A stretch of 64,000 nt of DNA from Escherichia phage FL12. The translations under genes and the position numbers were made by a program. This document shows, one piece after another, positions 2,177 to 22,817 of this stretch. The stretch lies in sequence record PP400786; one strand, 5' to 3'. The notes below the pieces were generated by a model, which worked only from the letters and a program-made list of their open reading frames with translations, was not told the origin of the DNA and did no database searches. Each line of letters begins with the position of its first letter. The first letter of the stretch is position 1.

Positions 2177-2986
2177 ATGCTTAAAGAACAACTGATTGCC
2201 GAAGCGCAGAAAATTGATGCTTCCGTTGCTCTTGATAGTATTTTCGAATCAGTTAATATTTCTCCGGAAGCAAAAGAAACTTTCGGCACTGTATTCGAAG
2301 CTACCGTCAAGCAGCACGCCGTTAAATTAGCTGAATCTCATATCGCTAAAATTGCTGAAAAAGCAGAAGAAGAAGTAGAAAAAAATAAAGAAGAAGCAGA
2401 AGAAAAAGCTGAGAAGAAAATCGCTGAGCAAGCTTCTAAATTCCTTGACCATCTTGCAAAAGAATGGCTCACTGAAAATAAATTAGCAGTAGATAAAGGT
2501 ATCAAAGCCGAACTGTTTGAATCCATGCTTGGTGGATTGAAAGAGCTCTTCATTGAACACAACGTTGTTGTTCCAGAAGAATCAGTTGATGTTGTAGCTG
2601 AAATGGAAGAAGAGCTGCAAGAACATAAAGAAGAATCAGCTCGTCTGTTCGAAGAACTCAATAAGCGTGACGCATATATCAATTATGTGCAGCGTGAAGT
2701 GGCATTGAGCGAAAGTACTAAAGATCTGACTGAGTCTCAAAAAGAAAAAGTCTCTGCTCTGGTCGAAGGTATGGATTATTCAGATGCATTCTCAAGTAAA
2801 TTGAGTGCAATCGTAGAAATGGTGAAGAAATCTAATAAAGATGAAAGCACTATTACTGAGAGTATAAATACTCCTGATACTGAAGCAGCCGGACTGAATT
2901 TCGTCACTGAAGCTGTAGAAGATAAAGCTGCACAGGGTGCAGAAGATATTGTAAGTGTATATGCGAAAGTCGCATCTCGTTTCTAA
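2177..2986 (+). CDS. 22: prohead core scaffold protein gp22
   Basis: 269 aa, Glu/Lys-rich coiled-coil-like sequence, T4 gp22 length and position. Confidence 0.9.
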   Translation: MLKEQLIAEAQKIDASVALDSIFESVNISPEAKETFGTVFEATVKQHAVKLAESHIAKIAEKAEEEVEKNKEEAEEKAEKKIAEQASKFLDHLAKEWLTENKLAVDKGIKAELFESMLGGLKELFIEHNVVVPEESVDVVAEMEEELQEHKEESARLFEELNKRDAYINYVQREVALSESTKDLTESQKEKVSALVEGMDYSDAFSSKLSAIVEMVKKSNKDESTITESINTPDTEAAGLNFVTEAVEDKAAQGAEDIVSVYAKVASRF

Positions 2987-3004
2987 TTTTAAAGGTTAAC
3001 ACAA

Positions 3005-4570
3005 ATGACTATCAAAACTAAAGCTGAACTTTTGAACAAATGGAAGCCATTACTGGAAGGTGAAGGTTTACCGGAAATTGCTAATAGCAAACAAGCGATT
3101 ATCGCTAAAATCTTTGAAAACCAGGAAAAAGATTTCCAGACAGCTCCGGAATATAAAGACGAAAAAATTGCTCAGGCATTTGGTTCTTTCTTAACAGAAG
3201 CTGAAATCGGTGGTGACCACGGTTACAATGCTACCAACATCGCTGCAGGTCAGACTTCTGGTGCAGTAACTCAGATTGGCCCAGCTGTTATGGGTATGGT
3301 ACGTCGTGCTATTCCTAACCTGATTGCTTTCGATATTTGCGGTGTTCAGCCGATGAACAGCCCGACTGGCCAGGTATTCGCACTGCGTGCAGTATATGGT
3401 AAAGACCCAATTGCTTCCGATGCTAAAGAAGCATTCCACCCAATGTATGGTCCAGATGCAATGTTCTCTGGTCAGGGTGCTGCTAAGAAATTCGCTGCTT
3501 TGAAAGCAAGTGATACTCTTGAAGTTGGAACTATTTACACCCACTTCTTCCAGGACACTGGTACTGTATATCTGCAAGCTACAGAAGTTAAGCAAATTGA
3601 TACTAGTGCATCTGACGCAGCTAAATTAGATGCTGAAATTAAGAAACAAATGGAAGCTGGTGTACTGGTAGAAATCGCTGAAGGTATGGCTACTTCTATC
3701 GCTGAACTCCAGGAAGGTTTCAATGGTTCTACCGATAACCCATGGAATGAAATGGGCTTCCGTATCGATAAGCAAGTTATCGAAGCTAAATCTCGTCAGC
3801 TGAAAGCTGCTTACTCTATTGAATTAGCACAAGACCTTCGCGCTGTTCACGGTATGGATGCTGATGCTGAACTGTCTGGTATTCTGGCTACCGAAATTAT
3901 GCTGGAAATCAACCGCGAAGTTGTTGATTGGATTAACTACTCCGCTCAGGTTGGTAAATCTGGTATGACCCTGACTCCGGGTTCTAAAGCTGGTGTATTT
4001 GACTTCCAGGACCCAATCGATATTCGTGGTGCTCGCTGGGCAGGTGAATCCTTTAAAGCTTTGTTGTTCCAGATTGACAAAGAAGCAGTTGAAATTGCTC
4101 GTCAGACCGGTCGTGGTGAAGGTAACTTCATTATCGCTTCCCGTAACGTAGTTAACGTTCTGGCTTCAGTTGATACTGGCATTTCTTATGCTGCACAGGG
4201 TCTGGCTACCGGCTTTAACACTGATACTACCAAGTCAGTATTTGCTGGTGTTCTGGGTGGTAAATACCGTGTATATATCGACCAGTATGCTAAACAGGAT
4301 TATTTCACTGTAGGTTATAAAGGTCCGAACGAAATGGATGCTGGTATTTACTACGCTCCATATGTAGCTCTGACTCCGCTGCGTGGTTCCGATCCGAAGA
4401 ACTTCCAACCGGTAATGGGATTCAAAACTCGTTACGGTATCGGTATCAACCCATTTGCAGAATCCGCTGCTCAGGCTCCGGCTTCTCGCATCCAGAGCGG
4501 TATGCCTTCTATTCTGAATAGCCTTGGTAAGAACGCTTACTTTAGACGTGTATATGTTAAAGGTATCTAA
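3005..4570 (+). CDS. 23: major capsid protein gp23
   Basis: 521 aa; N-terminus MTIKTKAELLNKWKPLLEGEG recognised as T4 gp23 precursor; strong codon bias. Confidence 0.97.
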   Translation: MTIKTKAELLNKWKPLLEGEGLPEIANSKQAIIAKIFENQEKDFQTAPEYKDEKIAQAFGSFLTEAEIGGDHGYNATNIAAGQTSGAVTQIGPAVMGMVRRAIPNLIAFDICGVQPMNSPTGQVFALRAVYGKDPIASDAKEAFHPMYGPDAMFSGQGAAKKFAALKASDTLEVGTIYTHFFQDTGTVYLQATEVKQIDTSASDAAKLDAEIKKQMEAGVLVEIAEGMATSIAELQEGFNGSTDNPWNEMGFRIDKQVIEAKSRQLKAAYSIELAQDLRAVHGMDADAELSGILATEIMLEINREVVDWINYSAQVGKSGMTLTPGSKAGVFDFQDPIDIRGARWAGESFKALLFQIDKEAVEIARQTGRGEGNFIIASRNVVNVLASVDTGISYAAQGLATGFNTDTTKSVFAGVLGGKYRVYIDQYAKQDYFTVGYKGPNEMDAGIYYAPYVALTPLRGSDPKNFQPVMGFKTRYGIGINPFAESAAQAPASRIQSGMPSILNSLGKNAYFRRVYVKGI

Positions 4571-19747: not shown

Positions 19748-19751
19748 CAAC

Positions 19752-19780
19752 GGGGACCTTTCGGTCCCCATATTTTTATT
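19752..19780. terminator. bidirectional terminator between gene 54 and the minus-strand alt region
   Basis: GGGGACCTTTCGGTCCCC hairpin followed by T-tract. Confidence 0.7.
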
Positions 19781-20066
19781 TACGGAATGAAATGAAAGCA
19801 GCAACTGAAGCAACTAAACCGTCTTCAATATAAACCTCAATTTTTACCGGAGCTTCTGACTCAAATTTACCTGTTACTACACCTTGGAAAATACTTTCAG
19901 TCTGTTCTGGCTTTGAAAAATTTTCAGAAGGAAAAATTCCGAACTTTTTATCTGTTCCAAAAATTTTGATAAATTCATCGTAAACTGCTTCATTAAAAGC
20001 ATTATCAGCAGGAATAACGCCTTCAACTACAAGTTCTTGACCTAAAAAGCGCAAAGAAGATTTCAT
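19776..20066 (-). CDS. hypothetical protein (position of T4 alt.-3)
   Basis: 96-aa ORF directly downstream of an early promoter with GAGGA Shine-Dalgarno. Confidence 0.65.
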   Translation of the reverse strand: MKSSLRFLGQELVVEGVIPADNAFNEAVYDEFIKIFGTDKKFGIFPSENFSKPEQTESIFQGVVTGKFESEAPVKIEVYIEDGLVASVAAFISFRK

Positions 20067-20097: not shown

Positions 20098-20127
20098 ACT
20101 ATAACACAACACGAGGGACTTGTAAAC
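20098..20127 (-). promoter_or_regulatory. sigma70-like early promoter (TTTACA-17-TATAGT); copy 1 of a 53-bp repeated cassette
   Basis: Minus strand TTTACA then 17-nt spacer then TATAGT; near-identical cassette recurs at 33344-33396. Confidence 0.6.
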
Positions 20128-20487
20128 TACATTTTGAACTTTTTAGTACGCGGAATAGGCATGCGTCAATTTTATACTGCTTCATTGTTTGAAGAGCAGT
20201 ATCAAAAACAGCGTTAATGACGCCAATTGGATTTCCACCCAAGTTTCTAAGTTTAACCAGTGATAATTTCTCGTTGACACCTATCATTACGATATGCATC
20301 ATTTTATCGCCCGGCTTAACGTTTTTATTCGTATCACCGCCAGAGGTGTATGTACAAAATCTAAATCCAGGAAGCACGCTTTCTTCGCCGGCTTGAATAG
20401 CAAAAATTTGTGGTATTTTATGCTTAGGATTTAAGTTAACAACCGGCGCCGAAGCGCCGTCAAATAATTATGTAATAAGTTCCATGA
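20099..20487 (-). pseudogene. 5' partial duplicate of alt (Alt residues ~1-130) with in-frame TAA at codon 6
   Basis: Minus strand reads ATG-GAA-CTT-ATT-ACA-TAA then continues in frame with PGFRFCTYTSGGDTN...DKMMHIV...QYKIDAC matching the Alt N-terminus. Confidence 0.65.
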
Positions 20488-20488
20488 T

Positions 20489-22579
20489 TTATCCTTGAAC
20501 GAACTTGTAAGGCATGTTTGCAATATCTATGCAAGACGCAATAATTCCAAGAGATGATTCTACTTTCTGTTTAACATTTGATGAAACAAATGATGCAAAG
20601 TCAACTCTGTCTTCTATATCACCTGTCATTGTAACCAATTCACCAGTTTCCATTAAATGGTCTCCGTCATAGATTACCGATTCGGTGAGTTCTTCTGTGG
20701 TCATGACTTCAGCTTGAATGAGTTTTGTATTATTAGATGTTGTTCCGTCATTATTAGAAGCATCAGTTATTTTATTAACTTTGACCATTAATCCGCGCGG
20801 TAGAATAACTTCAGCTTCTGTTGCTATTCCGAGACTTCCTGGATATACAACATTAACTTTATGTGCGCCGTCAATTGCCCATCCTATTTGAACTTTAACG
20901 TATTCAGGATTTTCTTTATACGCTCTTATTTCGTTTGGATTAATAGTTATTCCTTCTTCATTTTTATCAACTGTCAATTCATTACGAGCTTCTGGTTCTA
21001 AAAGACCAATACCAGCATGTGTAATTCCAAAACGCCCAAAAATGATAGGAGTTAAAGAAGTAGATACAAAATTTCTGAAATAGAACACTTTATTTTTAAC
21101 TAACGCTTCATATATAGGAGCAGTCATACTTTGAGCACGATAAACTGTAATGCCTTCTGGTATACGGTCACCATTTTCAAAAGCTGAATCTAAGTTATTT
21201 ATAGCAGATTCAATTTCTTTTTCACTCATTACATCATATCGTTCTGGATTGTAACGACCTAAAAGAAGATTATTGATGTCAGTATATCCTGAACCGCAAT
21301 ATTCTCTAATGCCACGCTTTTGTGATGGAGTATATTTAGAACCATCGCGGGCAATAGTAATATCAATCATTGGACCAGCACCAATTCCAGAAAAACTGTA
21401 AATCATTCGTTTGAGGAATTTAGTTTTTGCTGCGTTCCAGGAATTTTTAGTTATTTCTTCCCAGACTTCATCTGGTTGTCCTTTACGATTTTTATTATGA
21501 TTAGCAAGCCATTTATCTTTATAATCTTCAAAGAATTGATTTACAGCTGCTGCGTATTTCTCTAAACATTTTATTGAAGTAGTTGGTTCATTTTTAATTG
21601 CATTAAAAATTACTTCTTTAATTTTTTCTGAAACTTCACCGACTTGACTCATTGGAAAGAATTTATAATCATAGTGAAGTTCATCTGCCGTTCCTTCAGC
21701 AATAATTTTTGCTGCCTTTGTTTTAGAAGCTAATGAATTAATTCCAATTTTCATTTCTTCTGCTTCGGGAATTAAAGGTGCAGTAGCTGGTTTATTAAAA
21801 TTAGCTGCTGTAGATTCATACTTCTGGAATAATTCACTTTCAAATCTAGAAGATTCCAATGACTGACTTTGTGCAATTGCTCTACGGGAAATTTTAACTT
21901 TAACAATTACGGCTTGGTCAGAACGTTTATCATTTTCTTGTGCAATAGATGCTGCAATTGCCTCATTTTTAGTTACTTGAGCTCCAGTATCTTTATTGAT
22001 ATAAACATCACCGACCTTCGATTCAACTTTAGTAAAGAGCTCGGTACTAATTTCCGGAACCCCTGGAATGTCTTCTAGTGATACATTTTTGCGATGTATA
22101 AGAATATATGCATACTTTTTATCATAATCCCAGAGTTCCTTAAGAAGGACGTATCTGCCACCTGAACGACTACGGATAAGTCTATCAGCAATAACTTGAA
22201 TTTGTCGAGCTTGACCAGCAGTTTTAGACTTAAGAATACGGAGCATACAGGCATCAATTTTATACTGACGCATTGTTTGCATTGCAACAGTAAAAACTGA
22301 ATTGATATAATTAATTGGGCTTGGACCAAGACCTTTTAATTTAGCAATTGAACCTTTAGCGGTTAATGTAAAAGGAACAATATGCATCATTTTGTCGCCC
22401 ATTTTTAAATCACGATTAGTATCACCTCCAGATGTATAGGTACATAAACGAAAGCCTGGTTGTTCAATTGCATCATCAACGTGAACTGAAAAAATTTGCG
22501 GTATTTTCTTCTTTGGATGTAAGTTTGTAATTGGAAGAGTAGTATCTTCGTCAAATAATTCTGTAATAAGTTCCATCAT
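20489..22579 (-). CDS. alt: ADP-ribosyltransferase Alt (packaged, modifies host RNA polymerase)
   Basis: 696 aa, T4 Alt-like length and position between 54 and 30. Confidence 0.85.
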   Translation of the reverse strand: MMELITELFDEDTTLPITNLHPKKKIPQIFSVHVDDAIEQPGFRLCTYTSGGDTNRDLKMGDKMMHIVPFTLTAKGSIAKLKGLGPSPINYINSVFTVAMQTMRQYKIDACMLRILKSKTAGQARQIQVIADRLIRSRSGGRYVLLKELWDYDKKYAYILIHRKNVSLEDIPGVPEISTELFTKVESKVGDVYINKDTGAQVTKNEAIAASIAQENDKRSDQAVIVKVKISRRAIAQSQSLESSRFESELFQKYESTAANFNKPATAPLIPEAEEMKIGINSLASKTKAAKIIAEGTADELHYDYKFFPMSQVGEVSEKIKEVIFNAIKNEPTTSIKCLEKYAAAVNQFFEDYKDKWLANHNKNRKGQPDEVWEEITKNSWNAAKTKFLKRMIYSFSGIGAGPMIDITIARDGSKYTPSQKRGIREYCGSGYTDINNLLLGRYNPERYDVMSEKEIESAINNLDSAFENGDRIPEGITVYRAQSMTAPIYEALVKNKVFYFRNFVSTSLTPIIFGRFGITHAGIGLLEPEARNELTVDKNEEGITINPNEIRAYKENPEYVKVQIGWAIDGAHKVNVVYPGSLGIATEAEVILPRGLMVKVNKITDASNNDGTTSNNTKLIQAEVMTTEELTESVIYDGDHLMETGELVTMTGDIEDRVDFASFVSSNVKQKVESSLGIIASCIDIANMPYKFVQG

Positions 22580-22599: not shown

Positions 22600-22607
22600 T
22601 ATTTATA
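22600..22607 (-). promoter_or_regulatory. late promoter TATAAATA (minus strand) upstream of alt
   Basis: TATTTATA on plus strand about 20 nt upstream of the alt start; AAAGGCCCGAAGGCCTTT hairpin just upstream. Confidence 0.5.
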
Positions 22608-22628
22608 AAATTAAAGGCCCGAAGGCCT

Positions 22629-22817
22629 TTAGTAATCTAGTGGTAAGAGAGTACGATATATTTCAAACTTTGGTCCTTTTTCATAGGCATCAAATGTTTC
22701 TGTAAATTTATTATAAGCGTATGCATCTACAAATTCGAGAATGACTTGTGATACAGAAGTAGAAACATCTCCACCTTCTTTTTGAGCAATGACAATTGTT
22801 TCTAAGTAAGCTTTCAT
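22629..22817 (-). CDS. hypothetical small protein
   Basis: 62-aa ORF, start overlaps gene 30 stop. Confidence 0.55.
   Translation of the reverse strand: MKAYLETIVIAQKEGGDVSTSVSQVILEFVDAYAYNKFTETFDAYEKGPKFEIYRTLLPLDY

Follow-up and report, generated by a model that had tools for sequence, protein, structure and literature searches.

The window analysed here, a 64,000-nucleotide stretch of Escherichia phage FL12 (sequence record PP400786), comes from a Tequatrovirus, and its genes follow the T4 order: ligase (30), alt.1, alt, a remnant of a second Alt-like gene and alt.-3, with gp54 and gp48 on the opposite strand. The region is 96-99% identical to many Tequatrovirus genomes; in nucleotide comparison the best regional matches are EC128, fPS-2 and AV119, and T4 stands at about 95-96%. 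The features on which the argument turns are given below by position, all of them on the minus strand.

19776..20066, minus strand: alt.-3 (DUF5498, 96 aa), the next functional gene, with its promoter embedded in the 3′ end of the remnant
20098..20126, minus strand: T4-type (sigma-70-like) early promoter of alt.-3, TTTACA-17-TATAGT with an extended -10 TG
20099..20485, minus strand: alt-paralogue remnant at the locus of T4 alt.-1 plus alt.-2, 128 codons with TAA at codon 6, codons 1-117 homologous with the Alt N-terminus
20127..20129, minus strand: TAG that once ended the full-length paralogue, no longer in frame and read through (in T2, ...AAGTTCAAAATGTAG)
20138..20146, minus strand: deletion junction, the one remaining copy of the 9-bp direct repeat CTAAAAAGT
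20321..20329, minus strand: A-run AAT AAA AAC, codons 53-55, intact in the window, one A lost in T4 and many relatives
20444..20459, minus strand: hairpin CGGCGC-UUCG-GCGCCG, 24 nt past the remnant ATG, a perfect 6-bp stem with a UUCG tetraloop
20468..20470, minus strand: ochre codon TAA in place of GAA (Glu6), codon 6 of the remnant
20489..22576, minus strand: intact alt, 695 aa counted from its second ATG, with the ADP-ribosyltransferase domain spanning residues 378-627
22600..22607, minus strand: late-promoter motif TATAAATA, upstream of alt

Terminator hairpins were seen on either side of this group of genes, a bidirectional one at 19750-19771 (both strands) between alt.-3 and gene 54, and one with a UUCG loop after alt.1 at 22612-22631 (minus strand), which the late-promoter motif of alt adjoins. 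T4 alt is a late gene, and late transcripts from this motif would cross the remnant.

Read directly from the sequence, the minus-strand stop of alt is the TAA at 20491-20489, followed by the spacer ATC and the remnant's ATG at 20485-20483. The first six codons are ATG GAA CTT ATT ACA TAA, and the frame beyond the TAA stays open until a TAG at 20101-20099. A reading made from the sequence alone had described a minus-strand Alt-like frame with an in-frame stop at codon 6, and this description holds both for the coordinates and in BLASTP with the stop masked, where the translation shares 69 of 117 residues (59%) with the window's Alt, with 1 gap, at E=1e-46. Identity of this extent to Alt residues 1-117, at such an E value, makes the Alt-like frame real and far beyond chance. 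The translation also matches positions 2-120 of PHROG 802 (E=5.3e-51), which places an Alt-type N-terminal region in it, as well as phrog_23015 (1.7e-41) and phrog_15247 (2e-48). The similarity to Alt had been carried to residue ~130; the homology is real, but it ends at residue ~117 (window ~20138), and the last 12 codons of the remnant (SKCSLQVPRVVL) are an out-of-frame reading of the final 11 bases of a paralogous gene plus the promoter. The string CAAATAATT.TGTAATAAGTTCCAT, which had been taken for a duplicated 5′ UTR, turns out to be the reverse complement of codons 1-9 (ATGGAACTTATTACA.AATTATTTG) and is coding sequence; upstream of the ATG, all that alt and the remnant have in common is a Shine-Dalgarno-like AGGATA.

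A complete Alt-like gene of 2,058 nt (685 aa) occupies this position in T2, T6, RB18, PP01 and Shfl2. The T2-type paralogue begins at the same ATG, three bases after alt, and is labelled alt.-2 in some records; it is 41% identical to the window's Alt over the whole length and, in T2, carries ADPrib_exo_Tox (PF03496) at residues 416-620. The first 350 nt of the paralogue (those of T2, T6 and UTI-E4 included) are 94-98% identical to the remnant at the DNA level. The window is collinear with T2 through alt and these first ~350 nt, and then passes to the paralogue's last bases and alt.-3, and the sole gap relative to T2 is flanked in T2 by CTAAAAAGT on either side (break-point contexts CGCGTACTAAAAAGTaaaac on the left and GGAATGTCTAAAAAGTtcaaaatgtag on the right). 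In the intact genes CTAAAAAGT stands at offsets 339 and 2038 from the ATG, the first repeat being codons 114-116 and the second lying 11 bases ahead of the stop. The deletion measures 1,699 bp: between the ATG and the ribosome-binding site of alt.-3, T2 has 2,106 nt and the window 407 nt, a difference that agrees with the two repeat offsets.

As 1,699 is not divisible by three, the deletion shifts the frame. Residues ~117-683 are gone with it, the whole catalytic domain included, and neither PF03496 nor any other Pfam domain was matched in the 128-aa remnant translation, the region of the catalytic domain having been deleted entirely. Past Ser116 the remnant frame takes in the end of the paralogue in a shifted register (SKCS...), goes through the former TAG and runs into the alt.-3 promoter. 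The term decaying duplicate, used in the sequence-only reading, is thus apt, while its partial 5′ duplicate is not, since what lies here is a full-length tandem paralogue minus an internal 1,699 bp, which leaves the first sixth of the gene.

The junction is identical in all 20 of the remnants examined (the window, T4T and 18 others), and the 1,699-bp deletion was found in about 90 records. All sampled remnants have AAAATG and CCCTC on the right flank, where the intact copies vary; on the left flank the remnants are as diverse as the intact copies. Because the remnants share one right-flank haplotype and the intact copies do not, a single deletion event followed by recombination seems the more likely origin, and recurrent independent deletions at the same repeat seem less likely on the same grounds. 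A third alt copy in T2-type phages was also considered and rejected; the three places per record are the 5′ end of the paralogue, a promoter/3′ piece 1.7 kb away, and alt. In UTI-E4 the full-length second Alt-like gene (locus 2403-4461) carries a 1-nt insertion (T) near nt 857, and its annotation divides it into two ORFs; this would be an inactivation in its own right or else an error of assembly. Of the intact copies, this gene comes closest to the window's remnant in its 5′ 350 nt (98.6%).

The in-frame TAA was examined with a 55-nt query centred on the variable base, for which the megablast seed (28-mer) must include that base. With T at this position (TAA) the query matched 44 records at 100%, and with G (GAA) it matched ~449; the 44 include 12 RefSeq duplicates and so stand for about 32 phages. 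By full-length matches across the junction or by reading of the locus, 31 of the 32 are of the deletion type, and the remaining one, FN, has coordinates near-identical to those of F1; a TAA in a full-length copy was seen in none of the TAA phages. A sequencing error at this codon, which the sequence-only reading had named as a possible refutation, is excluded by the occurrence of the identical 55-mer in so many records, and the TAA is genuine.

The T4 counterpart is broken at a different place. In T4 codon 6 is GAA and one A is missing from AATAAAAAC, a loss that splits the frame into ORFs of 61 and 67 aa; for this reason the T4 locus is annotated as alt.-1 plus alt.-2. The 1-nt frameshift of T4 is absent from the window, which keeps AATAAAAAC and has E6* instead, and the two are allelic variants of the same remnant. 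Lesion states were read from an alignment of 26 loci comprising remnants and intact copies. On the shared deletion, the TAA occurs alone in the window, fPS-2, fPS-90, EC128 and SG1, and the loss of one A from the A-run occurs alone in T4, T4T, G8 and two IMG/VR contigs. Both lesions are present in Lutter, slur03 and F26; they are joined by a further -1 in a T-run in IME537 and PD112, by a 7-nt insertion in HY03 and by a 9-nt deletion in F1. Neither is present in AV121, FL23, N2 and SYGD1 (locus 416-802 in each), where the 128-aa ORF is open, and FL44 is a fifth phage with the open truncated frame (128 aa). Some records call the AV121-type 128-aa ORF an ADP-ribosyltransferase, though it is without the catalytic domain.

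Among the 49 non-duplicate records listed, roughly 8 have the TAA only, 17 the frameshift only, 19 both and 5 neither, counts inferred from match lengths (421, 420 or 419 nt) together with the list of TAA records rather than from base-by-base reading. The existence of all four combinations of the two main lesions implies recombination between the sites, which are 140 nt apart, or repeated slippage in the A-run. Several of the lesions could be assembly errors, and those of HY03 call for caution because its record may contain sequencing errors: alt is annotated there as a 645-nt fragment with an opposite-strand ORF upstream (HY03 locus 165-809 and 812-1230). A query with the remnant's 5′ end and N at the variable base found 4 loci in IMG/VR, too few for a population survey, and the population counts given here come from the annotated phage collection in place of IMG/VR.

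The feature is the pseudogene known from T4 as alt.-1/alt.-2, in an allelic form. The sequence-only reading had suggested a comparison with these genes (AF158101, HM137666), and when it was run they proved to share with the window the locus, the junction and the out-of-frame tail into the alt.-3 promoter, at 94-95% DNA identity (94.3% over 389 nt against AF158101). T4 alt.-1 and alt.-2 figure among the paralogous duplications of alt given by Nolan et al. 2006 (PMC1524935), the sole paper returned by a full-text literature search for alt.-2; a search for the function of the Alt-like paralogue found nothing relevant. The T4 GenBank note speaks of a [quoted passage not shown], and the annotation of T4T of [quoted passage not shown]. 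The allele of the window, E6* without the frameshift, is itself nothing new: about 30 deposited phage genomes have it, and one of these already calls it a putative pseudogene. The one so labelled is g192c of Yersinia phage fPS-2, of the same allele class (TAA at codon 6, in frame) and 98.8% identical, with five single-base differences in 421 nt; it is annotated from the same GTG (92 aa) as [quoted passage not shown].

The remnant of fPS-2 is paired with a 682-aa T4-type alt and that of the window with a 695-aa T2-type alt. Set against T4 Alt, that of the window is mosaic. It is almost unchanged over residues 1-246 and ~598-695, whereas residues ~247-597, the central part with the catalytic domain, are far more diverged and 13 residues longer, giving 71% identity overall. 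When the region is aligned with T2, alt included, DNA identity is ~96%; the phages closest in the remnant, EC128 and fPS-2, carry a 682-aa alt of T4 length. This pattern suggests that T-even phages exchange the enzyme core much as a cassette.

The parent gene is the full-length paralogue of T2, T6, RB18, PP01 and Shfl2, with the same start and the same hairpin. To compare constraint in the two forms, we classed the variable sites of codons 1-117 against the intact T2 frame in 8 intact copies and 18 remnants. We used a census of changes shared with intact copies or private to remnants in place of pairwise dN/dS because most of the polymorphism predates the deletion. Changes that occur in one or more of the 8 intact copies comprise 30 synonymous and 1 non-synonymous change, and those found in remnants only comprise 7 synonymous, 6 non-synonymous (V15A, A32T, G49D, N53D, G83S and F111L) and 1 nonsense change and 2 indels, private to remnants being judged against these 8, of the roughly 400 intact copies that the database has. 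The contrast gives a Fisher p of 2.7e-5 when disruptive changes are included and of 1.4e-3 for non-synonymous against synonymous changes alone. To judge by these substitutions, the N-terminus of the intact paralogue is under strong purifying selection and the remnants look unconstrained in both halves. The intact paralogue thus differs from the remnant in having residues 117-685 with PF03496 as well as this strong purifying selection, neither of which the remnant retains. The first ~110 nt, hairpin included, are almost invariant in remnants and intact copies alike, which could reflect constraint at the level of the RNA rather than just recent common ancestry.

We consider it very probable that the segment is a non-functional, decaying pseudogene remnant of the full-length Alt-like paralogue. 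An ancestral T-even phage would have had two tandem, co-transcribed genes for packaged ADP-ribosyltransferases, alt and its ~41%-identical paralogue. In the T4/FL12 lineage, replication slippage or illegitimate recombination between the two CTAAAAAGT repeats would then have removed the 1,699 bp, leaving the 5′ stub fused out of frame with the gene's final bases and the frame running into the alt.-3 promoter. In the proposed order of events the stub would have accumulated its lesions afterwards, because no enzyme remained for selection to act on, and the persistence of its DNA would be due to its small size, to a loss that is probably recent and to the alt.-3 promoter in its 3′ end. No enzyme is possible from the FL12 remnant, since the catalytic domain is missing and the frame ends at codon 6; by the Pfam search, even the full 128-aa product would be without that domain. 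The remnant's ATG is still good, with an AAGGA site at -5.2 kcal/mol against the anti-SD (nearby real genes, -5.2 to -6.9). Ribosomes are accordingly expected to initiate there and, because of the change of GAA to TAA at codon 6, to terminate after Met-Glu-Leu-Ile-Thr, and we infer that no product is made beyond this pentapeptide. The stub may still have a role in some backgrounds, such as the five phages with an open 128-aa frame.

The codon that was changed has a counterpart in Alt itself. The N-terminal 117 residues of T4 Alt are homologous to the remnant, the MELITE propeptide region included, and Alt differs from it in having a catalytic domain. According to a review of T4 head assembly (PMC9026906), the gp21 protease, whose cuts fall after Glu, removes a propeptide of ~7 residues from the N-terminus of Alt. 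Glu6 would be the P1 residue of this gp21 site, MELITE| (ITE|), at the end of the Alt propeptide, and we treat it as a coincidence that the mutated codon is the one for the presumed P1 Glu.

The sequence-only reading had also raised the expression of the fragment from internal starts, and its observation that the ORF 20099-20377 begins at GTG agrees with the program's ORF list. In such a case the stub would yield a small Alt-N-terminal protein, made either from the GTG at 20377 (92 aa) or from the ATG at 20302 (67 aa, the equivalent of Alt.-2), which might have the prohead core or Alt as partners. The frame is indeed open from codon 7 to codon 128 in FL12, T4 alt.-1 overlaps alt.-2 by ATGA in a classic coupling arrangement, the two pieces have separate PHROGs families, and in a T4 time course the RNA of alt.-1/alt.-2 is classed as middle (PMC9697503, Table S2). 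We nevertheless regard such a protein as very unlikely. The internal starts pair weakly with the anti-SD, at -2.4 kcal/mol for GTG37 and -3.6 for ATG62/63, well short of the nearby real genes; GTG37 reads GTA in T4; a stable hairpin stands between the TAA and these starts; and a product begun at codon 37 or 62 would be without the N-terminal propeptide. The frame of Alt.-2 is itself broken by the additional indels of IME537, PD112, HY03 and F1, and two of the remnant-only substitutions, G83S and F111L, fall in this part. Neither Alt.-1 nor Alt.-2 protein was detected in the same T4 time course, a result that concerns T4 and not this phage and a class of small proteins that are easily missed. 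The origin of the segment may also be questioned. On one reading, with which the wording of the older T4 GenBank note agrees, only the 5′ part of alt was ever duplicated and this lineage never had a full-length second gene, which is refuted by the findings that the remnant is 94-98% identical in DNA to the paralogue and shares only ~59% protein identity with alt, that the sequence past the junction is the paralogue's final 11 bases and stop, and that the junction is a 9-bp repeat found twice in the intact gene. We give next to no credence to the TAA being a sequencing error in a true frame of 128 open codons: open-frame alleles do exist (AV121, FL23, FL44, N2 and SYGD1), but the 44 records with the TAA 55-mer were independently deposited, and an open-frame product would still have no catalytic domain.

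Another possibility is that the DNA is kept for a non-coding role, in which the hairpin protects or defines the 3′ end of the alt mRNA and the rest serves as spacer or context for the alt.-3 promoter. Locally the hairpin dominates the folding (centroid structure, -12.8 kcal/mol), and it is nearly invariant in the 26 sequences of remnants and intact paralogues, and no equivalent is present at the homologous position of alt; it could affect the translation of the second gene or the stability of the alt mRNA. As a canonical terminator it was rejected, being followed by no T-run and absent from the calls of the terminator scan. The alt.-3 promoter at 20126-20098, a site annotated as a promoter in phage Lutter as well, is preserved exactly, with the deletion end-point just upstream of its A-rich region; because the promoter occupies these positions, the TAG stop of the remnant frame lies inside the TATAGT -10 box. 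In T4 both the RNA and the protein of alt.-3 are classed as early (PMC9697503, Table S2). Staphylococcus phage SAJK-IND (MG010123.1, 31849-31896) also has 48 nt with 97.9% identity to the early promoter region of T-even alt.-3, near the end of its 32-kb record, where they are probably contamination or a chimeric assembly. Against a non-coding role for the segment, the 121-nt region folds no better than its shuffles (z=-0.30), and of the 390 bp the promoter needs only about 60. Intact paralogues have the hairpin just as well, inside their coding sequence, where it encodes D-G-A-S-A-P, so it was not made for the remnant. We find such a role unlikely as the reason for the segment's presence, if somewhat less so than an expressed small protein; it would in any case be compatible with a decaying pseudogene and would not replace that explanation.

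Returning to the pseudogene remnant, its loss of function could in principle have been of use to the phage. At least two lesions have put the paralogue out of action, the 1,699-bp deletion and, separately, the +1 frameshift in the full-length copy of UTI-E4. It is conceivable, at low probability, that losing the second packaged ADP-ribosyltransferase is adaptive where hosts sense or resist it, with the stub kept as a patch of homology or, where its frame is open, with a dead Alt-N-terminal protein acting as a competitor. If this were true, the stub would serve as a patch from which the gene could be regained by recombination in mixed infections, or alternatively the 128-aa alleles of AV121, FL23, N2 and SYGD1 would encode catalytically dead proteins vying for places in the prohead core.

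For annotation, the right label for the 92-aa GTG ORF at 20099-20377 is a pseudogene fragment of a second Alt-like gene; several GenBank records wrongly name such an ORF protein-coding or "RNA polymerase ADP-ribosyltransferase". To what had been described for T4 our analysis adds the exact deletion, between 9-bp direct repeats, of 1,699 bp and out of frame. It adds that the frameshift of T4 and the ochre codon of FL12 are alternative secondary lesions on one common deletion, and that all four combinations of lesions occur. The locus thus provides a tidy worked case of pseudogene decay in a compact phage genome, with little import beyond annotation.
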